Source of the DNA: an uncultured Thermoplasmata archaeon
GTDB lineage: Archaea; Thermoplasmatota; Thermoplasmata; Lutacidiplasmatales; UBA184
Assembly (NCBI GenBank): GCA_963797975.1
Contig: CAWCRH010000006.1
Span: 10,754-74,753 of the forward strand
DNA length: 64,000 nt
Direction of reading: 5' to 3'
In this document: positions 1-64,000 of the stretch, piece by piece
Layout: every line of letters starts with the position of its first letter
Position numbering within the stretch: position 1 is the stretch's first letter
Notes under the pieces: model-generated
Databases searched by the model: none
What the model saw: only the letters and a program-made list of their open reading frames with translations
Told to the model about the DNA's origin: nothing
Position numbers and translations under genes: made by a program

Positions 1-43
1 ACGCTTGGGGGTCGCCTCGAGCTTTCCGAAGACCTCGGCGAGC

Positions 44-751
44 TCAAGGAACCTCATCGGACCTTCCTTCGTCGACCGCCGTGCGCAGGGCGTGAAGGTT
101 CTCCTCGACTTGACCGTCGGCAAAGACTGAATTCCCACAGACGAAGAACGTAGCGCCCGCCCGTGCGGTGGCGCGCGCAACGTCGAGGGTGACTCCGCCA
201 TCGATGGCCAGCTCAACCGCGCAACTGCGCCGGTCGAGCTCGGCGCGGGCCGACGCGACCTGGCTCAGCGCTTCGGGGAGGAACGTCTGTCCGGAGAAGC
301 CGGGCCGTACCCCCATGATCATGAGCTCATCCAGCCGGTCGAGCCAGGGGCCGGCTTTCGCGAACGGCGTCTCGGGCCGCAGCGCGAGGCCCACGGCGCT
401 CCCCAGCGCGCGAACGGCGCGGAGCACCTCCTCGGTCGGGTCCTCGGACTCCAGGTGGACGACGAGCGTGTCGCCCCCGGCCCGGTGGAAGGCGTCCACG
501 TAAGAAAGCGGATGGGAGATCATCAGGTGGACGTCCAGGGGGAGCCGGGTCCGACGGCGGACCGCGCTCACGAGCGCAGGCCCGAAGGAGATGTTCGGGA
601 CGAAGTGACCGTCCATCACATCGAGGTGGAGCGCGTCGGCCCCTCCGGCTTCCGCTCGTCGGATCGCGGTCACGAGGTCGGAAAAGTCCGCGCTCAGGAG
701 CGACGGCGCGAGCCGGGCCGGGCGGGACGTGCGGGACACGGAGGCGCCCAT
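44..751 (-). CDS. rpe: ribulose-phosphate 3-epimerase
   Basis: 235-aa ORF with typical Rpe sequence throughout (e.g. PSLLSADF, HLDVMDGHFVPN, MGVRPGFSGQ). Confidence 0.85.
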   Translation of the reverse strand: MGASVSRTSRPARLAPSLLSADFSDLVTAIRRAEAGGADALHLDVMDGHFVPNISFGPALVSAVRRRTRLPLDVHLMISHPLSYVDAFHRAGGDTLVVHLESEDPTEEVLRAVRALGSAVGLALRPETPFAKAGPWLDRLDELMIMGVRPGFSGQTFLPEALSQVASARAELDRRSCAVELAIDGGVTLDVARATARAGATFFVCGNSVFADGQVEENLHALRTAVDEGRSDEVP

Positions 752-803
752 CGGTGGGCGGTATAAGATGCCGTCTGCTCCCTTCAGGTGAAGGAGCTCC
801 GCG

Positions 804-1280
804 TTACAGGAACTCCTTCGGGTCCACCGCGTCCGGTTGATTGGCGAAGGTCACGTCCCGACGGGCCAACACGGCCTCCGGGGTCCATCGCCCGTACTTA
901 ACCGGACGGGTCCACGTCGGACGGAACTCTCGCCTCCTCGGACGGGGAGCGTCTGGGTCCGGCCGGTACCATAGGTACTGGAACAGGAGGAACTCGAAGT
1001 AGACCGCGGCGACCAGGGAGAGGACCAGCCCGAGGGAGCTCCCGGCCACGACCCAGAGCGCAGCGACCCAGCTGTCGAGCACGAGGAACGCAATCACGAG
1101 CCACCACTTGAACGCCTGGAAATAGAGCCAGTCGCTCCAGGAGGCTCCCGGCTCTTGGAGCGCGCGCCGCTTATCCTCAGCAATCGCCTCGATCCGTTCG
1201 CGGGTCGCTTCGTCGAACTCGGGCGGGTTCTCGGGACCGGGAGGTCGGGGTGCATCGGAAGGGTGGAGGACCGACGCCAT
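804..1280 (-). CDS. hypothetical membrane protein with about two TM helices
   Basis: 158-aa ORF with a hydrophobic core (WWLVIAFLVLDSWVAALWVVAGSSLGLVLSLVAAVYF). No recognisable family. Confidence 0.35.
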   Translation of the reverse strand: MASVLHPSDAPRPPGPENPPEFDEATRERIEAIAEDKRRALQEPGASWSDWLYFQAFKWWLVIAFLVLDSWVAALWVVAGSSLGLVLSLVAAVYFEFLLFQYLWYRPDPDAPRPRRREFRPTWTRPVKYGRWTPEAVLARRDVTFANQPDAVDPKEFL

Positions 1281-1295
1281 CGGTTCACGCCCGGC

Positions 1296-2513: not shown

Positions 2514-2520
2514 GGTCTCC

Positions 2521-4143: not shown

Positions 4144-4153
4144 GGTCCTCTCC

Positions 4154-5269: not shown

Positions 5270-5275
5270 GACGTT

Positions 5276-6553
5276 TCACCCCAGCCGAACCCGAGGGTCT
5301 AGGTAGGCGTAGAGCACGTCGACGATGATGTTGGCCGCGACCACGAGGAAGGTGAAGAGCAGCGTGGAGCCGAAAATGAGGGCGAAATCCTCTCCGTTCG
5401 GGAGCACCGCGTAGGTGATGATCAGACCGACGCCGTTCAGCTTGTAGACCGACTCGATGATGGGAAAGCCCCCGATGAAGAAGGCGAACGTAAGGCCCAG
5501 CACGGTGATCGTCACGTTCATCGAGTTGCGGCCGGCGTGGCGTTTGACCACCGTGGATTCTGGCACTCCCTTCGCGCGGGCGGTCCGGACGAAGTCGAGG
5601 TTCATCACTTCGAGCATGCTGTTACGCACGAACCGAAGGAGGATCGCGATCGAGCCGAAGGCGATCACGAGCGCGGGGAGGATCATCCGAACGAGCGTGT
5701 CGATGGCCAGCCACCAGTCGCCGTGGATCAGCGCGTCGACAGTGGGAAAGCCGGTCGGGTGACTGATGACACCGAGGGTGAGCCAGGCGGGATAATTGAA
5801 ATTCGCCGCACTGGCCCCCGGATAACTACACGAGCCAGGGGAAAGCACTGACGGCCAGGAGCCGGTCAGCTCCGAGAAGGCCGTCTCCCCGCTCGGGCAC
5901 CACGGGGTGTGCACGAGCGTGCCGGTCCCTAAGATGAGGACAAAGGCTAGCACGAGGAGCGTTCCTAACAGGAATGCGGGCAGCGCGAAGCCCGAGAACG
6001 ACATCACGCGCGCCGCCTGGTCGATCGGGCGATTACGGTAGACCGCGGAGAGGTTCCCAAGTGGGATGGCGATGATCAGGATGAGGAAGAGCGAGAGGAG
6101 GGCAAGCTCCAGGGTGTACGGAAGGAGCCACGACAGCACCGTGGAGACGGGCTGGCCCGAGATGAGACCGGCGAGGAACGATTGCTGTTCGGAACTATGG
6201 TTCGATACGAGACCCCACTGGAACGTGAAGCTGTGATAGATGTAGAGCGCCCATTGGATGAAGACCGGTTGATTGAGCCCTAAGGTCGGTGCGAGCGCTT
6301 CGAAGAGTGGGTTGTTGCACGTCCCGTTCGCGCCCGGGGTAATCTCGCTGCAGGGAATCGTCGGGTTGTAGGTGTGGATACTCCCGTGGATGGGCGGGGG
6401 GCCGAAATACGACTCGAGCTGCTGGGCCGGGCCGAGAGCGGTGACCAGGACAAAGGTGATGGTCATCACCCCGATGATAACGGGTACGAGGAGCGCGACG
6501 CGGCGAACGACGTACACCCACATCTTCATGGGGTCCGCTCCGGTCGAGTCCAA
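5276..6553 (-). CDS. ABC transporter permease (OppB/DppB type)
   Basis: 425-aa polytopic membrane protein. It is the first gene of the minus-strand operon and contains the EAA-like motif region ARAKGVPESTVVKRHAGRN. Confidence 0.8.
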   Translation of the reverse strand: MDSTGADPMKMWVYVVRRVALLVPVIIGVMTITFVLVTALGPAQQLESYFGPPPIHGSIHTYNPTIPCSEITPGANGTCNNPLFEALAPTLGLNQPVFIQWALYIYHSFTFQWGLVSNHSSEQQSFLAGLISGQPVSTVLSWLLPYTLELALLSLFLILIIAIPLGNLSAVYRNRPIDQAARVMSFSGFALPAFLLGTLLVLAFVLILGTGTLVHTPWCPSGETAFSELTGSWPSVLSPGSCSYPGASAANFNYPAWLTLGVISHPTGFPTVDALIHGDWWLAIDTLVRMILPALVIAFGSIAILLRFVRNSMLEVMNLDFVRTARAKGVPESTVVKRHAGRNSMNVTITVLGLTFAFFIGGFPIIESVYKLNGVGLIITYAVLPNGEDFALIFGSTLLFTFLVVAANIIVDVLYAYLDPRVRLG

Positions 6554-6679
6554 GCTCGACGGGAGTTTGACCGTGTTCCCGGTATTTAGCTATTCGACGA
6601 GGACGGTCACCTCGGCTCGGGTCCGCCGCCCCAGGGTCGACCGAAGCGCTTCTACCCCCGATGCTCTCGCGGCCGTTCG

Positions 6680-7243
6680 ATGGTCGTGACCCACCGACCG
6701 TGGAACCAGATCGCTCTCACGGGGACACCGGGAACGGGGAAGAGCTCGGTCGCCGCCCTTCTCCCTCGACGATGGACCGTATGCGAGGTCGGGGAGCTTG
6801 CCATCGCGTCGGGGGCAGGTCGGCGGATCCGCGGTGGGGTCGAGATCGACCTTCCCCGGTTACGCCACGCTCTCTCCGCGCAGAAGCCTCCTTCCGCCCC
6901 CCGGGTCCTCGTGGGCCACCTGGCTCACCTCCTGCCGGTCGACGCCGCGGTCGTGTTGCGCTGTCATCCCCTGGAGCTCGAGCGTCGCCTAGCCCGGGCC
7001 CACCGTGGCTCATGGGCGGAGCGCCGGCAGAACGTCGCCGCGGAAGCGACGGACATCATCCTCGTGGAAGCGCTCGCCCAAGGCGTGACCGTCTGGGAGG
7101 TCGACACGACCGGTCGTCCGCCCCTCCAGGTCGCCGCTCGGGTCATCTTCCGCCTGCGAGCGAAGGGGCCCCCGCGCTACGGTGACATCGACTGGCTCGG
7201 CGACCCGACGGTGACCGAGCACCTTTTGGATGCGTGTCCCTAG
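6680..7243 (+). CDS. putative adenylate kinase / Fap7 (AK6) homologue
   Basis: P-loop ALTGTPGTGKSS near the N-terminus. GHLAHLLPVDAAVVLRCHP, ILVEAL and VDTTGRPP match the archaeal Fap7 layout. About 187 aa. Confidence 0.7.
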   Translation: MVVTHRPWNQIALTGTPGTGKSSVAALLPRRWTVCEVGELAIASGAGRRIRGGVEIDLPRLRHALSAQKPPSAPRVLVGHLAHLLPVDAAVVLRCHPLELERRLARAHRGSWAERRQNVAAEATDIILVEALAQGVTVWEVDTTGRPPLQVAARVIFRLRAKGPPRYGDIDWLGDPTVTEHLLDACP

Positions 7244-7252: not shown

Positions 7253-7918
7253 ATGGTGCTGGAAGGACTGCGCCAGCGCCTCGGCCCTTACCTCGAGCGG
7301 ATCTCCCGTCCGTGGATGAAGTGGGACCCCAACCGCATCAGCTGGCTCGCCTTCTCGCTGCTCGTCATAGCGGCAGTTCTAGCCGCCCTCGTCCGCTGGA
7401 CGACCCCGCTCCTCTTCCTGCCCGTGGCGGCCCTCATTTTCGTCGGAGGCACATTAGATGTGATCGACGGCGAGGTCGCTCGGAGGACCCACCGCACTTC
7501 GGTGCGCGGCGACCTCCTCGACCATGTCCTCGACCGCTATGGGGACGTGCTGATCCTCATCGGAATCGCGATCTCCGGCTACGCGAGCCCGCTTCTCGCG
7601 CTGCTCGCGCTGGTGAGCTTGCTCTTGACGAGCTACATGGGCACGCAGGCTCAGGCAGTGGGACAGGGGCGCATGTACTCCGGCCTCCTCAGCCGAGCGG
7701 ACCGGCTCGTCCTCCTCAGCCTCGCGACGTTGCTGGAGTTCCTCTGGTGTTTGCCGTGGCCATGGGCCCCGACCGAACCCTGGTCGCACTTCGGGCTCTA
7801 CGGCGTCTCCTTCACGGTCATCGACGTCGTGCTCGTCTACTTCGTCATCGCCGGTCAGTGGACGGCCTACGCTCGGGCCCGTCGGACCTATCGGAGCCTG
7901 GGGCCGAGCCCTCCGTAG
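7253..7918 (+). CDS. CDP-alcohol phosphatidyltransferase family protein (archaeal polar-lipid headgroup synthase)
   Basis: Signature D-G-x2-A-R-x8-G-x3-D-x3-D (DGEVARRTHRTSVRGDLLDHVLDRYGD) in a multi-TM protein. Confidence 0.75.
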   Translation: MVLEGLRQRLGPYLERISRPWMKWDPNRISWLAFSLLVIAAVLAALVRWTTPLLFLPVAALIFVGGTLDVIDGEVARRTHRTSVRGDLLDHVLDRYGDVLILIGIAISGYASPLLALLALVSLLLTSYMGTQAQAVGQGRMYSGLLSRADRLVLLSLATLLEFLWCLPWPWAPTEPWSHFGLYGVSFTVIDVVLVYFVIAGQWTAYARARRTYRSLGPSPP

Positions 7919-9027
7919 CCCCCTCCGTCCGCGTCTCCATCACCCAGCCCCCGCGTAGCCGGTAGTACCTGGAGGGGGTGGCGGAGGGTCGGCTCGAAGC
8001 AGAGCGGGTCGCGTCCGCGGTCGCTCGGGCTGGGTGCGCTGGGGTCCCCTTCCCGGAAACACAGACCGTGGCTTCGAAGCGTGGCGCACTCCGGTGGCTC
8101 GTAGCCGCGCCCGTCGTCCCGCTGCGTGATGTGCTCGACCTGGTAGCGCGTGATCGATTCATCGAAGTCGGGAGCTCCCCGATAGGCATCCACGATCGTC
8201 TCGGAGTCCGCCCCCGCGCGATGGAGGAACGACGCGAGGGCGAACCGGCCCGAGTGCGAGAGGTTCTCCCCCGCTTCCAGCATCCGCCGCATCTTGCGAA
8301 TGCACGGAGGGAATCGGTCGGGCTGAAGCGGGCGCGCCCCCGCACCACCCCGCGCGACCGGTAGCGGCGTCCGTCGCGCGATCTCGTCCAGGAGGTCGCG
8401 CTCCCTCTCGCGGATCCCCTGAGCGAGCGCTGGTTCGACGGCGCGGGGGCGGGCGAGATCTAGACGGACCGCCTCCTGGAGGAGGCGGGCTGCACGAAGA
8501 CGGGGGAGCTCGACCGAACCGTCCTTAACCGGCTGGGCCGCGAGCCGAAAGTCGGCCTCGCGGATCGGAACGGAGAGCCGAACGTAATCGACCAGGTCGA
8601 TCCGAACGCGGTCACCCGCTCGCTCCTCCAAGGGGAAGCCGAGCTGGTGCCCGACCTCGAGAAGGTCGGACAGCGAGGCGCTCGCAAGACGGCGGTAGGC
8701 GCGTTTCGCTTCCGAGACCGCCCACCGCCGTAGCCCCGCGGCCGAAGGAGCGCTGGAGAGGACAAGCCGAGCGTAGAGGAAGGAGAGATATCGCTCCTCG
8801 GGGCTCGCGTGCGAGTCTTCCTCGACCGGTGTCGTTCCTCTGGGGTCGTCCGCTCCGGCGAGCGCGCGCGCTCGTGCTAGGGACCGGGGGCGTTCGAGCG
8901 CGGGGGCCTCCAATAGGTCGCGGATGGACAGATGCATCTCAGCGACCAATTGGTCGGCCCCCGGCAGGAAGGGGTACTCCCCCCAGAGCCCCGCGCGGTC
9001 TACAGGCGCGGTACCACGAACTGCCAT
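7888..9027 (-). CDS. priL: DNA primase large subunit PriL
   Basis: N-terminal YPFLPGA motif, central FPPCIRKM, and the Fe-S cysteine region (CATLRSHGLC). The ORF track begins at 9105. A start at Met 9027 avoids most of the overlap with the S2P gene. There is a 30-nt convergent overlap with the preceding gene. Confidence 0.7.
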   Translation of the reverse strand: MAVRGTAPVDRAGLWGEYPFLPGADQLVAEMHLSIRDLLEAPALERPRSLARARALAGADDPRGTTPVEEDSHASPEERYLSFLYARLVLSSAPSAAGLRRWAVSEAKRAYRRLASASLSDLLEVGHQLGFPLEERAGDRVRIDLVDYVRLSVPIREADFRLAAQPVKDGSVELPRLRAARLLQEAVRLDLARPRAVEPALAQGIRERERDLLDEIARRTPLPVARGGAGARPLQPDRFPPCIRKMRRMLEAGENLSHSGRFALASFLHRAGADSETIVDAYRGAPDFDESITRYQVEHITQRDDGRGYEPPECATLRSHGLCFREGDPSAPSPSDRGRDPLCFEPTLRHPLQVLPATRGLGDGDADGGGYGGLGPRLR

Positions 9028-12004: not shown

Positions 12005-12268
12005 ATGCAGCTCGGCCGGCTCCTCACCATCATCAATTTCGTCCTTCTCGGCACCGCGATCGCGGTCTACCTCTACCTTCCGTCCGTCGCCGACATCTTC
12101 TTGTACGTTCTGCTGGCGTGGATGTTCGGGAGCATCGTGCTGTTCTACCTCCCCATCTCTCAACGGCGGATCGGCAGTGGTGCGGCGCCTCCTCCGGCCA
12201 CCAGTGCCGCCTCGGCCGGGCCGGGGGAGGAGCCGCGCTCGCCTCGGTCGGACCCGTCGGAGCGATGA
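12005..12268 (+). CDS. small hypothetical membrane protein (2 TM)
   Basis: Two hydrophobic helices (LLTIINFVLLGTAIAVYLYL and FLYVLLAWMFGSIVLFYL). The stop overlaps the next start (ATGA). Confidence 0.3.
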   Translation: MQLGRLLTIINFVLLGTAIAVYLYLPSVADIFLYVLLAWMFGSIVLFYLPISQRRIGSGAAPPPATSAASAGPGEEPRSPRSDPSER

Positions 12269-12381
12269 CCGCCCCGGCCTCCGAGCCCGCGGCCCTCGCC
12301 TTTTGCATCTACTGCGGGACCGACCTCCCGGCGGGTGCGCTCGTCTGCCCGGCTTGCGCTAAGCCGGTACGCCGTATCTGA
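12265..12381 (+). CDS. small Zn-ribbon protein (C-x2-C-x10-C-x2-C)
   Basis: MTAPASEPAALAFCIYCGTDLPAGALVCPACAKPVRRI. The ATG overlaps the stop of the preceding ORF. The ORF track lists a longer upstream extension from 12118. Confidence 0.3.
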   Translation: MTAPASEPAALAFCIYCGTDLPAGALVCPACAKPVRRI

Positions 12382-12720: not shown

Positions 12721-13316
12721 TCCGGCGCGATCCGGACCATCGCTTCGTGGGCGCGAACGTTCGAACCGGCGCCCACCGTGATCTGGAGGACCCGGCCGGC
12801 GACCGGGCTCGCGATCTCGTTCCGCATCTTCATCGCCTCGAGGACGAGGAGAACCTGGTCTTTCGCCACGTGGTCGCCCACGCGGACTTTCACCTCGATG
12901 ATCTTGCCGGGCATGGGAGGAACCACCGCGGTCCCCGCCCCTCCTTCTTCGCTCGGTCGTTCCTTGGGGGTCGCCGGGATCACGATCGTCGCAGCCGGCC
13001 TCATGGTGGCCGGTCGGGAAGCTCCGACCTCCGCGCGGACCTCGCTCAGTCGCCACCGTTCCCCGTTCACATCGACCGGTCCCGGCGGCTCCGCGAGCCC
13101 CTTCGGCCACCCCTCGACGACGACCTTCTCGCCGCCGACCTCGAGCTCGATACGGTCGGGAGCCTCGGCGACGACCGTGTACGGGTAGCGGTGCTCCCCG
13201 ACCACCACTGTAGATCCGGCGAGGTCGACCTCGACCGATTCCCGCTTACCGTCGCGAACGATGCTGAGCCGCATCGACCCACCTCCGTTGGCCGAGGAGC
13301 CGGGCACGCCCTTCAT
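12717..13316 (-). CDS. biotin carboxyl carrier protein / biotinyl subunit (1.3S-like), possibly the C-terminal part of the upstream carboxyltransferase
   Basis: Canonical biotinylation motif EAMKM inside a biotinyl-domain sequence ([35 protein letters not shown]). The 130-aa N-terminal region resembles an OadA-type association/linker region. It overlaps the upstream ORF by 70 nt in another frame. Confidence 0.8.
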
Positions 13317-14782
13317 GCGCCCAGGGATTGACCGACCCTGCGTCGGCGGCGCGTGGGGCCGACGCCGATCGCGCGGCGGATTCGCGGGGCGCGCGTAGCG
13401 CTCCCACGATCCCGAGCGCCGCGCTCGTCAGGACCTCGTCCTTGAGCCCCTGGTCGAGGGCCGCACGATAGGAGCGGTAGACCTGAGGGAAGACCGCGTA
13501 GGAGAGGACCTCGGCGTCGTCCGCCGCTGGAACGAGCTGACGGACCTCCATGAGCCGCTTTTCGAACTCGGGCGGCAACAGGTCCGCCGGGCGGCCGGTG
13601 ATCGCGGGCTCGTCGCGAGTGACCTTCGCGCGGAGCACCGGATCGAGCGGGCCGGGTGGGCTCCCGTAAAGCCCGCGCACGTAGTCGCGGACCTCCCGAG
13701 TGATCGTGGCATAGCGCGTCCCGGCTAGCACGTTCATGACGGCTTGGATCCCCACGATCTGGCTGGTCGGCGTGACGAGCGGCGGGTAACCGAGGTCGGC
13801 CCGTACGCGCGGGATCTCTTCGAAGACCTCCTGCAGGCGGTCGAGGGCCTCCTGCTCTTCGAGCTGGCTCAGCAGGTTCGAGAGCATGCCGCCGGGGACC
13901 TGGTGGAGCAGGATCTGGGGGTCGGTCTGCAGGGCTCGGATATTGAGCAGGCCGCGGTAATGCTCCAGGACACGGCGGAAGTGTTCCGATATCTCCGCCA
14001 AGGCCCCGAGGTCGAGCTTCGGGTCGTGGTCGGTCCCGCGCCAGGCGCCGACCAGCGCTTCGGTCGGTGGCTGGGAGGACCCACCGGCGAACGGGCTCAG
14101 GGCGCTGTCGACCGCGGTCGCCCCAGCCTCGACGCACGCGAGGCAGGTGAGCGCCGACATTCCGCTCGACGAGTGAGTGTGGACGACCACGGGCAGTCCG
14201 ACCTCTTTGACCAGCACACGGACCAGCCGGGCGCCTTGATCCGGGGGCATGAAACCGCCCATGTCCTTGACACACAGCTCGTCCGAGCCGAGTTCGGCGA
14301 GCCGTCGACCGAGCCGAACGAACGAGCGCTAGGTCATGCACCGGCGACTGCGTGTAGCAGATCGTTCCCTGGGCGATCCCGCCGGCCTTCTTGACCGCGT
14401 CCAGTGCGACCTCCATGTTCCTCGGGTCGTTGAGCGCGTCGAAGACGCGGAAGATCGTGATTCCCTGACGGGCCGACTCCTGGACGAAGCGACGGACGAC
14501 GTCGTCCGGGTAGTGGCGATAGCCGACCAGGTTCTGCCCGCGCAAGAGCATCTGAAGAGGGGTGTTCGGCATCGCCCGCTTGAGCAGGCGCAGTCGCTCC
14601 CACGGGTCCTCTCGTAGGAACCGTAGGCACACATCGAACGTCGCACCACCCCAGACCTCGAGAGAGCGGTAGCCGATGGCATCCAGTTGCTCCGCCACCG
14701 GGAGCATGTCCTTCGTGCGCATCCGCGTCGCGATGAGCGATTGATGACCGTCGCGAAGGACCGTCTCGGTGATCTCGACCAT
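13246..14782 (-). CDS. pyruvate carboxylase subunit B / oxaloacetate decarboxylase alpha-like carboxyltransferase (5S-type), frameshifted
   Basis: The N-terminal 157 aa ([47 protein letters not shown]) lie in one frame. The continuation ([47 protein letters not shown]) lies in a +1 frame from about 14335. The shift is a single extra nucleotide near 14322-14336. Confidence 0.8.
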
Positions 14783-17637: not shown

Positions 17638-17655
17638 CATTCATAGTCGAAAACC

Positions 17656-18966
17656 ATGCCGTTCCAGTCCGATATATGGACCGCGACCCGTGGAGCGTTC
17701 GTGAGCGGCAACCTGGCGAACGGCGCGAAGGCCCCGGACGCAGCGAACGCACCGACGAATGGAACCACTCCCGCACCGCTCCCCACCCTGCATCGCCGAC
17801 GTTCTATGGCCCCGGTCATCGCGATCGTGGTCGTGCTCGTCATCGTAGCTGCGGGGATAGGAATCGGGTACCAACAGCACTGGTTCGGAGGGGGCGGCGG
17901 GTCCGGCACTCACGCCGGCACCTGTCCCATGGGCGTCACGCTCGCCGGCAACGGAGCACAGTTCGTGAACCCGCTCGTGAGCCAGTGGGCGGCGAGCTAC
18001 TCCTCCCAGACGCAGAATGTCGTGAACTATGTGGACGGCGGGTCGGGCGCGGGCATAACGGACCTCGAGGACACGACGGTCGATTTCGCGGTCACCGATG
18101 ACCCGCTATCGCCCTCCGAGACCGCCGCGATGCCGGGGACCACCCTGACCTTGCCCGTGACGGGAGGGGCGCTCGCGATCCTGTACAATCTCCCCGGCGT
18201 CCCGGGTCACCTCAACCTCTCCGGGGCGGTCCTAGCCGACATTTACCTCGGCAAGATCACCCAGTGGAACGACCCCGCCATCCAAGACAACAACACGGGG
18301 CTCTCGCTTCCGGCCCAGACGATCCAGACGGTCCACCGCTCGGACGCCGCGGGCACGACGTTCGTCCTGACCAACCTGTTGTCGGACGACAGCATAGCCT
18401 GGCATCAGGGCCCCGGCACAGGGATCTCGATCTCTTGGCCCTCGAACCCTCCAGAGTCGGAGGCGATCAAGGGGAACTCAGCGCTGCTGAGCTACGTCCA
18501 AACCACCCACTACACCATCGGCTACTCGGACCTCACGGATGTCCTCACGGCCTCCTCCCCTGTCCAGTACGCCGCCGTCCAGAATCCGACGGGCAACTGG
18601 ATCGTCCCGACGCTCGCCAACACCGCTTCCGCGCTCTGGGATGCCGTGAACACTACCACGTTCCCGACCTCGGCCGGCAACTGGTACGCGGTCAGCGCTG
18701 TCAATGCCCCGGGGGCCACGGACTACCCGCTGGCGACCTTCGCTTACCTGTTCGTCTTCCAGAACGCGAATGTAGGTTTCGAGCCGAGCCTCCAGAAGAC
18801 CCAGGTGCTGAACCAGTGGCTCGCGTGGATCCTGAGCACGGGGCAGACGGAATCGAGCGGACCGAATCTCTACTACGTGGCCCTTCCTCCCACGCTCGTT
18901 AGCATCGACCAGGCCGGGATCCAGACCATCACGTATGGAGGAACGGCGGTCCCTGCCTGCACGTGA
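17656..18966 (+). CDS. pstS: phosphate ABC transporter substrate-binding protein PstS
   Basis: PstS-like sequence with an N-terminal signal-anchor (HRRRSMAPVIAIVVVLVIVAAGIGIG). The probable true start is Met at 17806. Many N-x-S/T sequons. Confidence 0.85.
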   Translation: MPFQSDIWTATRGAFVSGNLANGAKAPDAANAPTNGTTPAPLPTLHRRRSMAPVIAIVVVLVIVAAGIGIGYQQHWFGGGGGSGTHAGTCPMGVTLAGNGAQFVNPLVSQWAASYSSQTQNVVNYVDGGSGAGITDLEDTTVDFAVTDDPLSPSETAAMPGTTLTLPVTGGALAILYNLPGVPGHLNLSGAVLADIYLGKITQWNDPAIQDNNTGLSLPAQTIQTVHRSDAAGTTFVLTNLLSDDSIAWHQGPGTGISISWPSNPPESEAIKGNSALLSYVQTTHYTIGYSDLTDVLTASSPVQYAAVQNPTGNWIVPTLANTASALWDAVNTTTFPTSAGNWYAVSAVNAPGATDYPLATFAYLFVFQNANVGFEPSLQKTQVLNQWLAWILSTGQTESSGPNLYYVALPPTLVSIDQAGIQTITYGGTAVPACT

Positions 18967-19945
18967 GGGCGCGGTAGAGGGTCCCCCTCCCGGGTCGGCA
19001 GCGGTGGCGACCGGACCGAGACGGGACCGGCGCATCCAGCGGCTGGGGGCGTTCGACCGCCTGTTCCACACGGTCACCGGGCTGGTGGCCGCCGGGATTC
19101 TCCTCCTGATCGCGGCCATCTCCCTCGTCCTGGTCACCCAGGCGTACCCATCGATCGTTCACTTCGGGCCCGGGTTCCTTCTCTCCTCCTCGTGGGACAG
19201 CGTCCACAGCAACTTCGGAGCGTTGCCCGCCATCGTGGGTACTCTCGTGACGAGCGTGATCGCGCTCGTGATCGCGGTCCCCATAGCGCTCGGCGCCGCG
19301 ATGTTCATGTCCGACCTTGGCCCCCGGCGCCTGAGGGAGCCGCTCACCTACATCATCGACCTCTCCGCGGCCGTCCCCTCGGTCGTATTCGGGTTCTGGG
19401 CGTTCATCGTCGTGGTCCCGTGGATGCGATCGACCGCGGAACCGGACCTCGCCTGGCTCACGGGGGGCCGCTTTCCCTTCGGCGGACCTCCCCTCGGCCT
19501 CGACATCCTCACCGCCTCGATCGTACTCGCCATCATGATCATCCCGACGGTTGCCGCGCTCTCCCGCGAAGCGCTGCGCGCGGTACCGGCTTCCCAGCGG
19601 GACTCGGCCTTGAGCCTCGGGATGACCCGGTGGGATGCGCTGCGCATCGCGGGCCTACGCCCGGCGGCCCCCGGGATAGCGGCCGCCATCGTCCTCGGAC
19701 TCGGCCGAGCCCTGGGCGAGACGATCGCCGTCCTGATGGTGATCGGCAACATCTACCAGCTCCCGACCTCGCTATTCTCCCCGGGGACCACGCTGGCGAG
19801 CTGGATCGCGAACGACTTCACTGCGGTCGGCCCCGGTCTCGAGATGAACGCCCTCCTCGAGCTCGGAGTGGTCCTGCTGGTCGTCACTGTGGTCGTGAAC
19901 GTGATCGCGCGTTTGTTCTTCCGGCGCATCGCGAAGCTCCCCCGA
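18935..19945 (+). CDS. pstC: phosphate ABC transporter permease PstC (continues in frame into pstA with no stop)
   Basis: PstC motifs (IIPTVAALSREALRAVP, LGRALGETIAVLMVIGN). After about residue 335 the same reading frame continues through a Pro/Ala linker into PstA-like sequence. The boundary coordinate is approximate. Confidence 0.7.
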
Positions 19946-20969
19946 AACGGCGACGAGGCCACTCTCGGCGACGCCGAAGCGACCTCCGCGTCGGAGGTCC
20001 CGAGCCCGAACGTCGCCCCCATCTCCCCGAGGCTGCAGGCCCTCGCCGCCCTCCCGCCCCCGCCCCCTCACAGCGCGCCGTGGCGGGCGCGTCGCCTCGA
20101 ACGCAGACGTTGGGTCTACTACATCGCGATCGGCCTGGTCAGCCTCGCCATCGTGCTCGCGCTCGTGCCGCTCGTGGACGTCACGTACATCGCGGCCGAG
20201 CGCGGCGGTTCGGCCGTCATCCAGCCGTCGTTCTACACGTCGGTCCCGCCGATCGGATGTAATCCGGGCCACGGCGTGAACTGCTCTCTGGGCGGGATCG
20301 GTCCGGAGATCCAAGGGACACTCATCATGCTCGGGCTCGGCGCGGCGATCGCGCTCCCGGTCGGGATCTTCAGCCGGGATCTACCTCGCCGAATACGGGA
20401 GAGGTCGGTTCGCGAGGGCGGTCGACTTCGTCGTGGACGTGATGACGGGGATCCCGACCATCTTGCTCGGCGTCTTCGTGTTCGTCGTGTTCCTGCGGCT
20501 GGACCACAACGCGGCCTTGAGCGCGCTCTCGGGCTCGGTCGGGCTCGCCATCCTGATGATCCCGATCGTCGTGCGCGGGACGGTCGAGGCCCTGAGGACC
20601 GTTCCCCGTGAGGTCCGAGAGGCCGCGGCAGCTCTGGGCTTTCCGCGCTACCGGACGAACTTACGGGTCGCGTTGAGTTGCGCTCGAGGAGAGCTGGTCA
20701 CGGGTGCGTTGCTCGCCGCCGCCCGCGCCGCCGGGGATACCGCCATCCTGCTCGTGACCGCGGGGGGGAGTATCCTTTGGTTCCAGGGACTGAACTCTCA
20801 GACCGCGGCGATCACGCCGTTCATCTTCAGTAACTTCCAGTCGGAGTACACCAATCTGCAGACCGATGCTTGGGGCGCGGCCCTGGTCCTCCTCATTATC
20901 ATGCTCGCGATCAACCTGGGGGCCCGCCTCGCGACACGCTCCCACGTCGTGATCGCGGAGCCCGGGTGA
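19946..20969 (+). CDS. pstA: phosphate ABC transporter permease PstA, frameshifted
   Basis: The PstA N-terminus (RRRWVYYIAIGLVSLAIVLALVPLVDV...LPVGIFS) is in the pstC frame. The C-terminus (GIYLAEYGRGRFARAVDFVVDVMTGIPTILLGVF...) is in the frame of ORF 20433..20969. A single extra C at about 20372-20378 (agCCggg) separates them. Confidence 0.7.
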
Positions 20970-20971
20970 CC

Positions 20972-26582: not shown

Positions 26583-28052
<1,470 letters not shown>

Positions 28053-40666: not shown

Positions 40667-40672
40667 GGGCTC

Positions 40673-50726: not shown

Positions 50727-50869
50727 ACCGCGGACCATCGCTTTTAGCCCGGCCCGGTTCTGACGGTCGGCGTTCTCCGTGGTCGTCCGAGGGTACCGCA
50801 CCGCACTAGAGGAGCTCTTCCAGCTCCGTCGTCTTCGGGATCGCGCCGAGCCTCGAGACGATCCGTGCC

Positions 50870-52162
50870 GTGCTCGCGGAGCTCGGAAACCCCCAGGAGA
50901 AATTCCCGTCGGTCCATATCACCGGCAGCAAGGGGAAGGGCTCGGTCGCCGCGATGACCGCGACGATCCTCACCGCGCACGGATACCGGACCGGCCTCTA
51001 CACATCGCCCCACCTCGTCAGCTATCGGGAACGCGCCCGGATCGATGGAGGGGAGATCGCTCCGCGAGAGGTCGTCCTGGGCCTTCGCCGGATCGAGCGA
51101 GCCGTGGGAGCGCTCCGCCGGCGTGGCGCGCTGGAACGCGAGCCGACGTTCTTCGAGACGACCACTGCTCTCGCGTTCGACTGGTTCGCGCGCTCGAAGG
51201 TCACTGCGGCGGTGGTCGAGGTGGGCATCGGAGGCCGGTGGGACGCGACCAATGTCCTGCGCTCGCGCGTCGGCGTGGTGACGACGCTCGAGCTCGAACA
51301 CACGGAGATCCTGGGTCCGACGCTCGAGGCGATCGCCCTCGAGAAGGCCGGCATATTCCACCCCGGGATGAGAGGCATCATCGGCCGTCTCCCACCCCAG
51401 GGTGAAACGGCCATCGAGCGAGTCGCCGACCGGCACGGTGTCGCCCTTTGGCATCTCGAGGAGGAGGTCACCGTAGCCGAGCGCGTCGCGACCCCGAGAG
51501 ACCAGCGCTTCGTGGTCGGCTGGCCGAAAGGGAACTCCCTTCCCGTCACCCTCCCTCTCATCGGCCGCTTTCAATCGGGGAACGCGGCGATGGCGGTCGC
51601 CGCGGCGTCCCTCTTCCTGTCGGACGGCGGAGTGGGCCTGCGCGGCCCTGCGACGCGTCGGGCTCTTCAACGGGTCCGCTGGCGGGGCCGCATGGAACGG
51701 GTGAGCCGTCGTCCACCGACGTACTTCGATGTCGCGCACACCCCCGAGAGCGCTGCCGCCGTCGCCGAGAGCGTAGCGGAGGTCGAGCCGTTCGCCGACC
51801 CCCAAACGAGCGCGATCGTCTTCGGATGCCTCGAGGGCAAGGACGCGGCGGGTCTGTTCTCCGCACTGAGCGGACTCGCACGGACGCTCATCCTGGTGCC
51901 CGTGCGTTCGCAACGGGCACGTTCCCCGGCTTCGCTGCGGCCGCTGGCCATAGCGCACTTTCCGCGTATCGTCATCGCTCCGAGCGCGACCGAAGGACTG
52001 GCGATTGGAAAGCTGGCGGTCGGTCCGATGGGCGTCCTCGTCGCCGTCGGCAGCGACTATCTGATCGGGGAGCTCCTGCGTGCCGAGGAACCCGGTGGCG
52101 AGGAGGAACCGGACCTCTCCGACCCGGGGTCGACACCGCCCCCCTCGGGGGGCCGGCTGTGA
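50870..52162 (+). CDS. folC: folylpolyglutamate synthase / dihydrofolate synthase (Mur ligase family FolC)
   Basis: HITGSKGKGS P-loop and Mur ligase middle/C-terminal blocks. The true start may be an upstream non-ATG codon (the in-frame upstream sequence SLETIRAVLAELGNP is FolC-like). Confidence 0.8.
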   Translation: MLAELGNPQEKFPSVHITGSKGKGSVAAMTATILTAHGYRTGLYTSPHLVSYRERARIDGGEIAPREVVLGLRRIERAVGALRRRGALEREPTFFETTTALAFDWFARSKVTAAVVEVGIGGRWDATNVLRSRVGVVTTLELEHTEILGPTLEAIALEKAGIFHPGMRGIIGRLPPQGETAIERVADRHGVALWHLEEEVTVAERVATPRDQRFVVGWPKGNSLPVTLPLIGRFQSGNAAMAVAAASLFLSDGGVGLRGPATRRALQRVRWRGRMERVSRRPPTYFDVAHTPESAAAVAESVAEVEPFADPQTSAIVFGCLEGKDAAGLFSALSGLARTLILVPVRSQRARSPASLRPLAIAHFPRIVIAPSATEGLAIGKLAVGPMGVLVAVGSDYLIGELLRAEEPGGEEEPDLSDPGSTPPPSGGRL

Positions 52163-54236: not shown

Positions 54237-56811
54237 ATGGACCCGGGCGAGTACGACCTTTCCATCTTCCACCGGCTGGGCATGGCGAGACGCGTCTGCT
54301 CGAGCTGTGGCCACGCCTTCTGGACGCTGGGCGAGCACAGCCGATGCCAGGAAGCCCCGTGCACGCCCTACGGCTTCATCGGCCGACCGATCTTCCAAAG
54401 ATCCTACGCGCTCGCCGAGATGCGCGAGGCCTACCTGTCGTTCTTCGAGAGGCACGGGCACACCCGCCTGCGCCGCTATCCGGTCGTCGCCCGCTGGCGG
54501 AACGACGTCTTCTTCACGCAGGCGAGCATCTACGACTTCCAGCCGTGGGTGACGAGCGGTGCCATCCCGCCCCCGGCGAACCCGCTCACGATCTCTCAAC
54601 CGTGCCTACGGTTCATCGATTTGGAGGAGGTGGGCCGAAGCGGCCGCCACTTCACGTTGTTCGAAATGATGGCTCACCACGCCTTCAATCGGCCGGACCA
54701 TGAGGTCTACTTCAAGGACCGATGCGTCGAGCTTTGTCACGAGCTGCTGGCGGGCGAGCTCGGCACCGACCCTCGAGCGATCACCTACAAGGAAGAGGAA
54801 TGGGAGGGCGGAGGGAACCTCGGCCCGTCGCTAAGCGTAGGCGTCGCAGGGCTCGAACTCGCGACCCTCGTCTTCATGGAGTACGTCCGGGACGGAGAGC
54901 GACTGGCGCCAATGCCGCTCACCGTGGTCGACACCGGCTGACGGGCTCGAGCGGTTCGTCTGGGCGAGCCAGGGGACGAAGACGGCGTACGAGGCGTCCT
55001 TCGCGAGCGCCTACGAAGAGTTGCGACAGAATCTTCCCGCGCCCGAGGCCGCGATCGCCATTGACCACGCGCGCGCTCTCAACTTCATGCTCACGGACGG
55101 GGTCGTCCCGTCGAACGCGAAGGAGGGCTACTTCGCCCGGCTCCTGATCCGACGGACGCTTCGCGTACTTTCCAAGGCGTCTGAGCCGGTGGAGCTCATT
55201 GCGGTGGTCGAGCGGGTCGGGCGAGAGCTTGCGCGCGACTATCCCGAGGTCGGAGCCCACCGGGCCGACCGAGACCGCATCCTGGCGGCGGAGATCGAGC
55301 GCTACACGGAGGCGGTGGAGCGAGCCCGCCCCGTCCTTCGTCGGCACGAGGAGCGCCTGAAGGCAAGCGGCCAGAGCGTCGGGGTCGAGGAGCTGGTCGA
55401 GTGGTACGACTCCCTCGGGGTCCCTCCGGACGTCGCCTCGAGCCTGCTCGAGAGGCCGGTGCCGGTACCGGATGGGTTCTACGCATTGGTCGCCGAGCGA
55501 CACGCAGGTGAGACCCCCTCGAACGAGTACGCCCAGGACGCGGGGAAACTCGCGAACATCCCGCCCAGCATCCCCGCGACCGAGGTAGGGTACTACCTCG
55601 ACCCCTACACGACCTCCTTCGAGGCGCGGGTCCTCTGGTCGCAGGGACCGCTCGTCGTGCTCGACCGCACGTTCTTCTATCCGACCGGTGGCGGCCAGGT
55701 GAACGACACGGGGGACCTTGGCGAGGTGCCGGTGGTGGAAGTACAGCGCCAGGGTCCATGGGTCGTGCACCGGCTCGACCACCCAGCCGCCTTCGGGCCG
55801 GGGGACCGGGTGCACGCGCATATCGACCGGGCTCGCCGGACCCAGCTCATGCAGCACCACACGGCCACCCATCTTCTGAACGGCACCCTCCGAGAGGTGC
55901 TCGGCCCTCACATCTGGCAGAGCGGTGCCTACAAGGGACCGGAGATGGCGCGGATCGACGTAACGCACTATAAGCCGCTCTCCCGCGACGAGCTCCGTCA
56001 TATCGAGCACCGGGTGAACGAGGTCGTCCGCGAGAACCGGCCCGTCAAGAGCTACTTCGAATCGCGGACGGAGGCGGAGCGCCGCTTTGGCTTCACGCTC
56101 TACCAGGGCGGAGCGGTCCCGGGCAAGGAGCTTCGGATCGTCGAGGTCGAGGGGTTCGATGTGGAGGCATGCGGGGGAACTCACTGTACGCACACGAGCG
56201 AGGTCGGGGCGATCGCCCTGCTCGGGGTCGAGCGGATCCAGGACGGCGTCGTTCGCCTCACCTACGCGAGCGGGGAGCGGGCGATCGATATCCGCGAGGA
56301 GCACGAGGCGGTCCTCCATGAGGCCGCGAAGCGGCTCGGGGTACCGGTCGAGCACCTCCCGGACGGGATCGACCGGCTCCTCGCCGAGGTCGAGGCGTCG
56401 CGCCGCGCCGAGAAGGGCCGCCGCAAGGACGACCTGAGCGCCGTGGCCGAGCGACTGTTGGGAGACCCGGGCAACACGGAGGCCTCCGGGCCGGTGACCG
56501 TGATCCGGGCCCAGGTCGACCTCGACCGTGCCGAGATGATGGAGCTCTCCCGGCTCCTCTCCAAGGGCCCCGACCGCGTCGTTCTCCTCGCCTCCGAGCG
56601 GGAGGGCCGCGGCACCCTCTTCATCGGTTCGACGGCCCCATCGATCCCAGCCCAAGAGCTCCTCAAGCTCGCGCTGCCGGCGTTCCAGGGGAAAGGGGGC
56701 GGGAACCCGGCCTCGGCGACGGCGGTCGGAGAACCCGGTCCCCCGCTGGAGAGCGCGCTCGAGCTCGCCCGCTCGGAAACGCGCCGCCGCGCCGCGGCCC
56801 GCCCTGACTGA
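54237..56811 (+). CDS. alaS: alanine-tRNA ligase (archaeal type), interrupted by one frameshift
   Basis: N-terminal ORF 54237-54941 (WEGGGNLGPSLSVGV...TVVDTG) and ORF 55021-56811, whose frame upstream of its start continues with GLERFVWASQGTKTAYEA. A single extra nucleotide at about 54936-54944 separates them. Editing-domain motifs HTATHLL and CGGTHC are present. Confidence 0.9.
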
Positions 56812-60938: not shown

Positions 60939-61613
60939 CTAGGCGAGCGCGGGGGGCAGTGGAATCTTAAGCGCCTTCAAGCGCTTATTGATTTCGTCCT
61001 CACTGAATTCGTGGTATTCCTTGGCTGTGATCGTGTGGATGAGGTATCCATCGCCGCTCGCGCTGTCGCGCTTCATGGCGACCGTAAGGCCGCGCAGGGC
61101 GAGGTCGACGCCGTCGCTGACGGTCATGTCACGGGAGTACACTTCCTCCAGAACGCCGTAGGCGAAGGTCGAGCCGCTACCGACCGATACGTAGCGGTCC
61201 TCGATCGAGCCCCCGGCCGGGTCCACCGAGAAGACGTGACCCCCCTTCGCGTCGACGCCGCCCAGGATGAGCCAGGCGTAGTAGGGGAACATCCGGTTCC
61301 CGGAGAGGATGTTCGCGAGGAGCGTCGCGGCCCCTTCCGCGCTCAGCGGGGCGTTGCGGCGCAGCCGATAGAGCGAGACCTCCGCGCGGAGGTAGCGCGC
61401 GAGCGTCTGGGCGTCCCCGACGAGGCCCGCGATCGTGATCCCGATGTTCTGGTCGATCCGGAAGAGCTTGAACGTCTGCTTGTTGGCGATCATGGTACCC
61501 GCGGTCGCGCGTCGCTCGGTCGCCAGGACGACCCCGTCCTTGCAGACCAGACCGATCGTCGTGGTCCCCTTGAGCAGACGCTCTTCGTCGGCGGGACTGA
61601 TGAGATTCGGCAT
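60939..61613 (-). CDS. psmB: proteasome beta subunit
   Basis: Propeptide followed by GTTTIGL (active-site Thr after the G|T cleavage site) and an Ntn-hydrolase fold sequence. Confidence 0.85.
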   Translation of the reverse strand: MPNLISPADEERLLKGTTTIGLVCKDGVVLATERRATAGTMIANKQTFKLFRIDQNIGITIAGLVGDAQTLARYLRAEVSLYRLRRNAPLSAEGAATLLANILSGNRMFPYYAWLILGGVDAKGGHVFSVDPAGGSIEDRYVSVGSGSTFAYGVLEEVYSRDMTVSDGVDLALRGLTVAMKRDSASGDGYLIHTITAKEYHEFSEDEINKRLKALKIPLPPALA

Positions 61614-61799
61614 CGAAACCTCCCTGCTACGAGGGAAACGGCCGGGGGACTCGGGGTCGGTATATAACGGCTCACGACGGCGTTACGCCGTCTTCACCGA
61701 GGGAAGTCAGGGAAGCCGTGGGACTCGCGTGAGCGGCGGCGAGAGCCGGTCGCGTGGCGTCACCGCTTAATGCTCGGTCGATTGTAACGGCCCGGTTCT

Positions 61800-63479
61800 A
61801 TGCGTCGGCACGAGGTAGTGGTGGTCGGCGCGGGTCTCGCGGGACAGCGCGCGGCCCTCGCGGCGGTCGAAGCGGGCCGTGAGGTGGCGGTCGTTTCCAA
61901 GCTCCACCCGCTGCGTTCGCACTCGGGAGCGGCCCAAGGGGGGATCAACGCCGCCGTCCGGGCGGACGATTCGATCGATGCCCACATCTACGACACGGTG
62001 AAGGGTTCCGACTATCTCGGGGACCAGGACGCGATCGAGTTCTTCTGCCGGGAGGCCGGCCCGATCGTCGTCGAGATGGAACACTTCGGGACCATCTTCA
62101 ACCGCGCGGAGGACGGCTCTCTCGCCAGCCGCCCGTTCGGCGGAGCCGGTTTCCCGCGCACGATCTATGCCGCGGACCGCACTGGGCTCGCGCTCCTGCA
62201 AGCGCTCTGGGAGCGCCTCGGTTCGGAGGCGAAACGGTTCACGCTCTACTCCGAATCGGACCTCACCCAAATCGTCGTGCGGGACGGGCGGACCCAGGGC
62301 GTCGTTGTCCTGGACCGAAGGACCGGCCAGTTCGAGGGAATCGCGGCCCGCAGCGTCGTCATCGCGACCGGGCCGAGCGGACGGATCTACGCGCGGACCA
62401 CGAACGCCCACAGCTGTACCGGGGACGGAATGGCCGTGGCGTACGAGGCGGGCGCCGCCCTCAAGGACATGGAGTTCGTCCAGTTCCACCCCACGGGACT
62501 TCTCGACTCCGGAATCCTGATCACGGAGGGGGCGCGAGGGGAAGGAGGGTTCCTCACGAACGTCTCGGGCGAGCGGTTCATGGCGAAATACGCCCCACGG
62601 GTCCTCGAGCTCGCGAGCCGGGACGTGGTGTCTCGGGCGATCGTCACGGAGGTGGCCGAGGGCCACGGGTTCCCGGGAGGCTACGTTCATCTCGAGCTCA
62701 TGCACCTCGGCCGGGAACGGATCGAAAGCCGGCTCCAGGAGATCTGTGAGATCTGTCGGAACTTCGCCGGCATCGACCCCGTGACCCAGCCGATCCCCGT
62801 CTATCCCGCCCAACACTACATGATGGGCGGGGTCGGGACGAACATCCAGGGAGCGACCAGCATCGCCGGCCTCTTCGCGGCGGGAGAAGCGGCGTGCGTA
62901 TCGATCCACGGTGCGAACCGCTTAGGGGGGAACTCGCTGATGGAGACCCTCGTCTTCGGTAAGCAAGCGGGGATCGCGGCGGCGGCGTACGCCAGTAAAC
63001 CGGTTTCGACCGAGGTCACGGCCGCGGACGTCGCCCTATCCGAGACCCCGATCCGGGCCATGATGGCCCGCACGGACGGCGTCGATCCCGCGGAGATCCG
63101 TAGCGAGATGCAAGCGACGATGGAGCACTACGTCGGGATCTACCGCACGGAGGCCGACCTTCTCGAGGGACTCCGTCGTATCCGCGCGACCCAGGCGCGG
63201 GCTCAGCAGCTACGGATCGTCGACCAATCGAACGTGTTCAACCTTAACCTGACCGACACCCTGGAGGTTCGTCACATGCTTTCTCTCGCCGAGGTCATCA
63301 TCGTCGGAGCCTTCGCGCGCACCGAGAGCCGCGGAGCGCACTCCCGCATCGATTATCCGAAACGGGACGATGCCCACTGGATGCGACACACGTTGGCGAC
63401 CCGAGGACCGGGAGGACCCTCACTCTCGTACAGCCCGGTCGCCTTCACGCGGTGGGAACCGAAGGAGCGGGTCTACTGA
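61800..63479 (+). CDS. sdhA: succinate dehydrogenase / fumarate reductase flavoprotein subunit
   Basis: FAD-binding [10 protein letters not shown], the covalent-FAD His region [10 protein letters not shown], and the active-site HPTG and RGEGG motifs. Confidence 0.9.
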
Positions 63480-63480
63480 T

Positions 63481-64000
63481 GGCGAGCGCGACCGTTACGA
63501 CGCCCGTCGATGTGTACCGGTTCGACCCGGCCCGGGACCGGGCCCCGCGGTACGAGCGGTTCACCCTGGAACTCGAACCGCACACCCCCGTGCTGACCGC
63601 CCTCCTAAAGATCCGCTACGAGAAAGACCCGTCCCTCGCGCTGCGCTACTCCTGCCGCGCCGCCATCTGCGGCTCCTGCGCGATGCAGATCAACTCGAAG
63701 AGCCGGCTCGCGTGCCAGACGCAGGTCGGACCTGAACTGGCCGAGCACGGTCGCGTGGTCGTCGAGCCGATGCGAAACCAGCCCGTGCTCCGCGACCTGG
63801 TCGTCGACCAGAGCCCGTTCTGGCAGGAGTACGACCGCATCGAGCCGTTCCTGAAGCTCGACCCCCGTCACCCGATGCCCGAAGGTCGACCAAACTCGAT
63901 GAGCCCGGCGGAGGTCGAACGTTTCTACGAGACCCCTCGCTGTATCGCGTGCGCCGCCTGCTATTCAGCGTGCCCCGCCGTGGAAAGCGACCCGGCGTTC
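63481..64000 (+). CDS. sdhB: succinate dehydrogenase iron-sulfur subunit (partial, runs off the window end)
   Basis: [2Fe-2S] motif CRAAICGSCAM and the start of a CxxCxxC [4Fe-4S] motif (CIACAAC). Confidence 0.85.

Follow-up and report, generated by a model that had tools for sequence, protein, structure and literature searches.

Single-base frame breaks in conserved genes of a soil Thermoplasmata genome very probably stem from leftover consensus errors in a long-read metagenome assembly

At coverage below about 40x, indels in Nanopore consensus sequences lead to frameshifted gene calls (PMC9262707), and methylation motifs give rise to systematic consensus errors (PMC6591954). The authors of a large Danish catalogue of soil MAGs, built from Nanopore reads only with Flye and one round of Medaka, describe errors associated with Nanopore in MAGs of lower coverage, above all archaeal ones (PMC12313526). 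We have analysed here a 64,000-nucleotide stretch (the window; 67% GC) of a MAG from an uncultured soil archaeon of the Thermoplasmata. Frameshift-aware alignment of proteins to DNA, with the proteins of the closest relative as reference, revealed 14 single-base frame breaks in 9 of the ~55 protein genes of the window. With some 55 kb of coding sequence, this amounts to roughly one break every 4 kb; ten are insertions and four are deletions. The relative is a congeneric Illumina soil-metagenome contig from ENA (ERZ924426 k127_836179; loci L001, L002 and L004). A hidden Markov model of codon-phase GC, run without any reference, switched independently at 33385, 32758, 31596, 14336, 20379, 42939 and 54939. 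This number of breaks is far above chance; the same aligner found 0 true breaks in ~170 short-read rpoB, rpoA' and rpoA'' genes. The first-pass annotation had counted at least nine frame disruptions, a figure that is borne out and exceeded; it had missed two breaks in rpoA' (31598, +1; ~31311, -1) and those in priL (7968, +1), folC (50833, +1) and a zinc-ribbon gene (~12225, -1). It had also placed several sites in short homopolymers, which holds for a single break, found in a run of four or more identical bases; the other 13 lie outside such runs.

The most heavily affected gene is that of RNA polymerase subunit A', which has two unbroken controls nearby:

31182-33959, reverse strand: rpoA' (RNA polymerase subunit A'), 926 codons once repaired, four breaks
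33386-33388, reverse strand: rpoA' break a, one nucleotide missing at 33388, between KFG and (R)PEWMVL
32760-32762, reverse strand: rpoA' break b, one nucleotide extra, TGC read as TGGC (VTPG C IVERQ)
31598-31599, reverse strand: rpoA' break c, one nucleotide extra, GAG[G]TAC, directly after SPTE
31296-31320 (~31311), reverse strand: rpoA' break d, one nucleotide missing, original frame regained
33975-37646, reverse strand: rpoB, unsplit, 1224 aa, intact internal control adjoining rpoA'
26583-28050, reverse strand: 16S rRNA gene, full length (Rfam RF01959, 1470 bits), non-coding control

Pfam Rpb1 domains 1-4 are spread across three ORFs in rpoA'. Aligned to the relative with frameshifts allowed, the gene matches across aa 1-926 at 95.7% identity, and the repaired protein aligns with its best homologue (P0002) over 926/926 aa with 0 gaps and 95.5% protein identity. 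Breaks a and b had been noticed beforehand at ~33390 (-1) and ~32765 (+1) and are now placed at 33388 and 32760. Break c had remained hidden because the wrong frame stays open: together with break d, the position of which is approximate since it falls in a variable linker, it brackets 95 codons in the wrong frame with no stop met. The boundary between A' and A'' is the natural one and shows nothing unusual (31182/31176). The adjoining rpoB is 97.9% identical to that of the relative at the amino acid level, with no gap and no break, and the 16S rRNA gene aligns without gaps at 99.6% identity. The breaks are mildly clustered, with four in 2.1 kb of rpoA' versus none in the adjoining 3.7 kb of rpoB; under a uniform error rate the probability of such a stretch is roughly p = 0.001, or about 0.04 after allowing for scanning. 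Two further candidates in rpoA' homologues were rejected. Several homologues of 543-544 aa begin near the motif MEKNAEAC, as if a break were conserved there, but one (P0008) is cut by its own contig end and another (P0016) lies on another long-read contig with many breaks elsewhere; in distant relatives, of 65-70% identity, the aligner itself produced the +1/-1 pairs called at aa ~108-135, where a variable loop lies.

The other broken genes are the following:

54237-56808, forward strand: alaS (alanyl-tRNA synthetase), one +1 break at 54939
20123-20966, forward strand: pstA (phosphate ABC permease), one +1 break at ~20366-20372, between PVGIF and (A)GIYLAEYGR
13249-14782, reverse strand: 5S (carboxyltransferase / PYC_OADA) subunit gene, one +1 break at 14326
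40676-44596, reverse strand: large sedolisin-family protease of ~1300 aa with a Pro-kumamolisin activation domain, +1 breaks at 43003, 42933 and 42035
39289-40565, forward strand: IS1182-family transposase, one -1-type break at ~40307-40325
7848-8937, reverse strand: priL (DNA primase large subunit), one +1 break at 7968, CAG[G]TAC
50779-52159, forward strand: folC-type folylpolyglutamate synthase, one +1 break at 50833, past codon 18
12005-12378, forward strand: small zinc-ribbon protein, probable -1 break in a GGGGG run at ~12225

In alaS, the TAC codon for the Tyr of the relative's DTGYGLER motif reads T[G]AC, and the repaired gene aligns across aa 1-856. The PstA profile (NCBIfam TIGR00974) matches over positions 3-76 in one frame, up to ~20372, and over positions 76-268 in the next. 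The 5S break is flanked on each side by 12/12 residues identical to the relative, and both halves of the zinc-ribbon protein are conserved, in two frames. The transposase is colinear with a 440-aa homologue over aa 1-437; its element (~39173-40672) is not present in the relative, and a search for terminal inverted repeats found none. Most of these sites agree with those given by the first-pass annotation: alaS at ~54940 (+1), pstA at ~20375 (+1), the 5S gene at ~14330 (+1), the transposase at ~40320, and the sedolisin at ~43000 and possibly ~42050, its third site being moved from ~42949 to 42933. The possible second break in the 5S gene at ~13330 is instead a natural 26-nt overlap between the end of 5S (13249) and the start of the BCCP gene (13274), which is identical in the relative. 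An apparent break at 6709 in an AAA18/putative kinase gene was likewise dismissed as an aligner artefact, the in-frame ATG at 6680 being the normal N-terminus.

The one-base breaks are real in the deposited sequence. Truncated products occur verbatim on a single 573,943-bp NCBI/ENA contig: a 305-aa N-terminal fragment of rpoA' ending past break a (P0363), a 520-aa C-terminal fragment starting just downstream of break b (P0001), a 234-aa N-terminal fragment of alaS (P0361) and a 430-aa, N-terminally truncated folC call (P0393); the exact rpoB product is also public (P0364). P0001 is 100% identical even through the wrong-frame stretch 31311-31598. The suggestion, raised by the first-pass annotation, that the sequence had been deliberately perturbed, with indels inserted after retrieval, is therefore refuted for at least six breaks (four in rpoA', and those in alaS and folC), since their products were already public; this match covers the six individually and not the remaining eight, and alteration of the window is scarcely credible overall.

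We consider it very probable that the breaks are residual indel consensus errors of a long-read metagenome assembly. A class control comprising 190 comparisons of rpoB, rpoA' and rpoA'' across 81 related loci revealed true breaks only in long-read MAGs with Flye-style 'contig_N' names: 16 in L006, of which 15 are insertions, at least six in L067 (MFD00709.bin.2.183) and one in L033 (MFD09222.bin.2.157). Contigs named k141_ or NODE_ had 0 true breaks in these genes. The insertion bias of the window has the same direction as that of the Flye-style MAGs, and the true breaks of the related loci sit at positions other than those of the window. An rpoB-based locus search returned 80 relatives, all at 93% identity or less and none of them the source contig, and an exact 60-mer spanning the 32760 break matched none of the GTDB species representatives. 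The clustering of breaks in rpoA' is a point against the error reading, and so is the rarity of breaks in homopolymers of four or more bases, as classic Nanopore errors favour deletions in long homopolymers.

Adding or removing one base at each of the 14 sites regains full-length, stop-free homologues, with flanking residues identical to the relative right up to the breaks. The closest relative is in frame at every comparable site, and among the search matches listed, full-length homologues of rpoA' and alaS each consist of one in-frame ORF. At dS values of 0.6-1.2, dN/dS is 0.015-0.066 in each of the five segments of rpoA', 0.044 and 0.083 on the two sides of the alaS break, and 0.037 and 0.060 on those of the 5S break, the same range as in the intact controls rpoB (0.022), CPSF (0.029) and MCM (0.070); purifying selection acts normally upstream and downstream of the breaks in rpoA', alaS and 5S. 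An intact 857-aa AlaS (P0362; Logan contigs L088-L090) clusters with the N-terminal fragment of the window; it was rejected as a short-read assembly of the same species, having only ~81% DNA identity and being no closer than L002.

These results bear directly on whether the indels are real in the DNA, as recent inactivating mutations or true pseudogenes in a decaying or heterogeneous population. The breaks do exist in the deposited assembly, the IS insertion missing from the relative indicates some recent genome change, and neither the transposase nor the large secreted protease is indispensable, frameshifted copies of such genes being common in nature; for the transposase and the non-essential sedolisin, a real mutation is indistinguishable from an error. 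However, single-copy essential genes are struck (rpoA' four times, alaS, priL), and a search for signs of decay found neither relaxed selection nor in-frame stops after repair, nor are there larger deletions or extra substitutions. dN/dS is no different downstream of the breaks from upstream of them or from intact genes; among the 81 related loci, only long-read assemblies show the same phenotype; and one insertion type recurs, GTAC to GTACC, which to our knowledge is not a known mutational bias. We thus regard real indels as very unlikely.

Programmed recoding, by +1/-1 ribosomal frameshifting or transcriptional slippage, would also give full-length conserved proteins, since these can be read with one ribosomal shift per site. 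In alaS, moreover, the break coincides with a 0-frame UGA stop (GGC UGA C), an arrangement which we take to be superficially reminiscent of the prfB +1 site. A +1 shift there would nevertheless give Asp in place of the Tyr of the relative's motif. Neither an X_XXY_YYZ heptamer nor an A/T run was found within 25 nt on either side of any of the 14 sites; no signal is common to them, both directions occur, and no break site is conserved in any relative compared, which by itself goes most of the way to refuting recoding. A 64-kb stretch with 14 independent recoding sites, and a single gene with four, would be without precedent, and recoding is an extremely improbable explanation. Equally hard to believe is that the breaks are genuine and that essential genes such as rpoA' and alaS are expressed through signal-poor recoding or transcript correction, or, in a milder form, that the recurrent GTAC to GTACC insertions disclose a GTAC-specific DNA modification of the lineage, legible in assembly errors by themselves. 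Repair, the relatives, dN/dS and the lack of recoding signals all support the initial proposal of sequence, assembly or consensus error rather than decay or recoding.

Among the presumed consensus errors, one subset stands out by its sequence. GTAC became GTACC in 4 of the 10 insertions of the window, versus a background of 1.7% (binomial p = 1.6e-5; about 0.002 after correction for 136 tetramers), with 4 of 181 GTAC sites affected, and a GTAC[C] insertion is also found once in L006. This is a sequence-specific error signature. A base modification that confuses the basecaller may account for this subset. CCGG was rejected as a second error motif: with 757 sites in this genome, it is too common to be informative.

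The scheme that we favour is that a deposited, highly contiguous soil Thermoplasmata MAG would carry leftover single-base insertion and deletion errors, mostly insertions, from a long-read assembly; we infer that this was most likely Nanopore-only, of modest coverage and without short-read polishing. Each error would shift the reading frame, so that gene callers give two or more fragments or a wrong-frame middle, and the genes would be intact in the living organism. As the breaks are in all likelihood consensus errors, they are ordinary, uninformative on biology and without a biological message, and their value is practical. About one gene in six is affected. Calls of pseudogenes, split genes, gene fusions or 'novel small ORFs' in the window are unsafe without frameshift-aware methods, and the same caution probably applies to the whole 574-kb contig. 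Some errors are invisible to ORF inspection: the 95 wrong-frame codons of rpoA' are free of stops, and the 520-aa product, as deposited, has therefore brought a nonsense stretch into public protein databases. For long-read MAGs, the GTAC-linked subset points to a cheap means of flagging motif-specific systematic errors and possibly DNA modification. Gene fragmentation by consensus indels is measured by IDEEL-type tests and repaired by proovframe or Homopolish.

Several known systems resemble the window in part. As in programmed frameshifting (prfB +1, dnaX -1, IS1/IS3 transposases), a full-length product needs a one-base shift; unlike in these cases, the sites of the window have no slippery sequence and are not conserved in relatives. 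The natural fission of archaeal RNA polymerase genes (rpoA'/A'', rpoB'/B'') also makes a large subunit appear as several ORFs, whereas the extra breaks in rpoA' have no start codons of their own, leave fragments that overlap in shifted frames, and are not shared by the full-length A' homologues (920-932 aa, all five Rpb1 domains) among the matches listed. Methylation-linked Nanopore errors, for instance at Dcm CCWGG, provide a parallel in that the error sites are strongly enriched in a short palindromic motif; they differ in that only four of 181 GTAC sites are affected, no GTAC methyltransferase has been identified in the window, and the methylation link is one that we infer. Compared with Nanopore consensus indels in general, the breaks of the window are mostly insertions at non-homopolymer or 1-to-2-base positions, on a platform that is itself presumed. 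Like them, however, they are single-base, occur about once per few kb and split or truncate otherwise conserved genes; they strike essential genes indiscriminately, short-read assemblies of relatives are free of them, and, within the same family, further long-read MAGs of Flye style have them too.

The window carries 14 single-base frame breaks in nine of its approximately 55 protein genes (ten insertions and four deletions); these are very probably consensus errors rather than the result of gene decay or programmed recoding, which supports the interpretation favoured in the first-pass annotation. The window is GC-rich (67%, with strong third-position GC) and its gene set is archaeal, with rpoH, an unsplit rpoB (1224 aa), rpoA', rpoA'', L7Ae and nusA, together with riboflavin, sulfate-assimilation and purine genes, alaS, a pst operon, a methylmalonyl-CoA carboxyltransferase cluster and a stand-alone 16S rRNA gene. 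The best named homologues of its proteins are labelled 'MAG: Thermoplasmata archaeon'. The closest sequence fetched is a 203,828-bp MEGAHIT contig from a soil metagenome (ENA ERZ924426 k127_836179, comprising our loci L001, L002 and L004), which is syntenic with nearly the entire window. The 16S rRNA genes are 99.6% identical without gaps and the coding DNA about 77-85% identical; this contig thus represents a congener, suited to residue-level comparison. The 16S rRNA gene is located as follows.

26583-28050, minus strand: full-length 16S rRNA gene, flanked by ribB and a HAD hydrolase gene

Neither 23S nor 5S rRNA is found near it, and L001 shows the same layout. The two contigs differ elsewhere: the pstSCAB operon (within 17647-21721) stands in place of a TauE-family gene of the relative, and around 6529-6680, between the putative kinase and oligopeptide permease genes, the SHMT/ECR1_N/methyltransferase/PRC block of the relative is absent.

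We aligned 46 translated genes of the relative to the window with our own dynamic-programming aligner, which allows one- or two-base skips, and printed the codon-level context of every skip. This alignment confirmed breaks in rpoA' at 33388 (one base short) and 32760 (one extra base), and single extra bases in alaS (54939), the 5S carboxyltransferase gene (14326) and the sedolisin gene (43003, 42933 and 42035); at all these sites, the 10-12 residues on either side match the relative identically or nearly so up to the break. A further possible break suspected near 13330 is instead a normal overlap between the end of the 5S gene and the start of the BCCP gene, present also in the relative. The alignment additionally revealed breaks that the first-pass annotation had missed.

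31598 (one extra base) and ~31311 (one base short), minus strand: rpoA'
7968: priL
50833: folC, after codon 18
~12225: small zinc-ribbon gene

An independent, reference-free HMM, whose sole input is GC by codon phase, placed frame switches at 33385, 32758, 31596, 14336, 20379, 42939 and 54939; within genes lacking a counterpart in the relative, it found none other than that at 20379, in pstA. For this gene the evidence is an NCBIfam PstA profile, of which positions 3-76 end at nt ~20372 and positions 76-268 begin at nt ~20370 in the next frame (junction PVGIF followed by (A)GIYLAEYGR). No pst operon is present for comparison in any of the related loci fetched. Upstream, one open frame (18935-20372) holds both pstC and the N-terminal portion of pstA with no intervening stop codon, and a stretch of about 60 aa rich in Pro and Ala links the two; either PstC and PstA are naturally fused, or a further error lies undetected at the pstC stop. 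The IS1182 transposase has a single -1-type break at ~40313 and is otherwise colinear with aa 1-437 of a 440-aa homologue. Its element, of about 1.5 kb (~39173-40672), is inserted into the 32 nt separating the sedolisin gene from a 57-aa ORF and is missing from the congeneric contig L001; a search for terminal inverted repeats found none.

Pseudogenisation through real mutations would be expected to relax constraint, and this is not what we observe. Nei-Gojobori comparison with the relative (dS about 0.6-1.2 throughout) gives dN/dS values of 0.031, 0.024, 0.030, 0.066 and 0.015 for the five segments of rpoA', an essential gene which has four independent lesions and yet no relaxation of constraint. 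The two sides of the alaS break give 0.044 and 0.083, and those of the 5S break 0.037 and 0.060, in the same range as intact genes (rpoB 0.022, CPSF 0.029, MCM 0.070, RtcB 0.084). One-base repair restores rpoA' over 926/926 aa (95.5% identity, no gaps) and lets alaS align over aa 1-856, and the alignments of repaired genes to the proteins of the relative are free of in-frame stops. Programmed recoding across the breaks is likewise not supported, since the relatives share none of them, no X_XXY_YYZ heptamer or A/T run occurs within 25 nt of any of the 14 sites, and the shifts run in both directions. True mutation and error are, however, indistinguishable in the IS transposase and sedolisin genes. 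The last 40 codons of priL (7848-7976) overlap the 3' end of a CDP-alcohol phosphatidyltransferase gene that converges on it from the opposite strand, an overlap shared by the relative; dN/dS there is high (0.65), probably due to dual coding, and the phosphatidyltransferase gene ends 7 codons earlier in the window than in the relative.

Every break testable against the public protein collection is present there. A 520-aa C-terminal piece of rpoA' (P0001) matches the window at 100% identity, wrong-frame stretch included, and exact entries exist for a 305-aa N-terminal rpoA' piece (P0363), a 234-aa alaS piece (P0361) and an N-terminally truncated folC of 430 aa (P0393), as well as for intact rpoB, PsmB and RtcB; all are assigned to one 573,943-bp contig in NCBI and ENA. 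Because the truncated products are already public, the suggestion that the sequence had been deliberately perturbed falls away for the rpoA', alaS and folC sites tested. The breaks at 31598 and ~31311 enclose 95 rpoA' codons, including a conserved motif (19 protein letters, not shown), and are invisible to ORF inspection because the wrong frame happens to remain open. In P0001, about 95 wrong-frame residues consequently replace the conserved start of Rpb1 domain 5 (31311-31598, minus strand), an example of an error that escapes any ORF-length check.

Siting in short homopolymers, as proposed for several breaks, held only in part: located by conserved flanking codons, only one of the 14 lies in a run of at least four identical bases. 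Four of the ten insertions are one event, GTAC to GTACC (window 7968, 31598, 42933 and 43003; priL CAG[G]TAC, rpoA' GAG[G]TAC, sedolisin GTG[G]TAC and GTA[C]CC). Together with one base on either side, GTAC makes up 1.7% of the window (binomial p = 1.6e-5; about 0.002 once corrected for 136 strand-collapsed tetramers), and just 4 of its 181 GTAC sites are hit. Methylated motifs are a known source of motif-specific consensus errors in Nanopore data (PMC6591954), and the pattern may stem from a GTAC-specific DNA modification confusing the basecaller. The breaks are also mildly clustered: rpoA' has four within 2.1 kb, and the adjoining rpoB (3.7 kb) and the 16S gene have none. Local coverage or a mixture of strains might account for this.

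The same aligner was applied to rpoB, rpoA' and rpoA'' across 81 related loci (190 gene comparisons). Only contigs from long-read MAG projects, named in Flye style, had true breaks. In contigs with k141_, k127_ or NODE_ names these genes were free of them, and the break pairs seen there proved to be compensating aligner artefacts, located in a variable loop in distant sequences. L006 (ERZ25039507 contig_4884, 651,751 bp) has 16 breaks in the three RNAP genes, 15 of them insertions, and one GTAC[C] insertion (at 7428), while L067 (MFD00709.bin.2.183) has at least six true breaks and L033 (MFD09222.bin.2.157) one. Within 5149-13692 of L006, a Thermoplasmata MAG, rpoB is called in four pieces and rpoA' and nusA in two each, and rpoA'' is truncated; public protein databases list these fragments as though each were a gene. 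The 10:4 insertion bias of the window has the same direction as in those long-read MAGs, and this error phenotype, together with the length of the source contig, suggests a long-read platform for the source assembly. The frame breaks are very probably an artefact of a known kind, of low biological interest, and the practical warning applies to any annotation taken from this contig. The MFD long-read catalogue is a Nanopore-only assembly made with Flye followed by a single Medaka round, and its authors noted Nanopore-associated errors in lower-coverage MAGs, mainly archaeal (PMC12313526); residual indels leading to frameshifted gene calls below about 40x coverage have been documented for such assemblies (PMC9262707).
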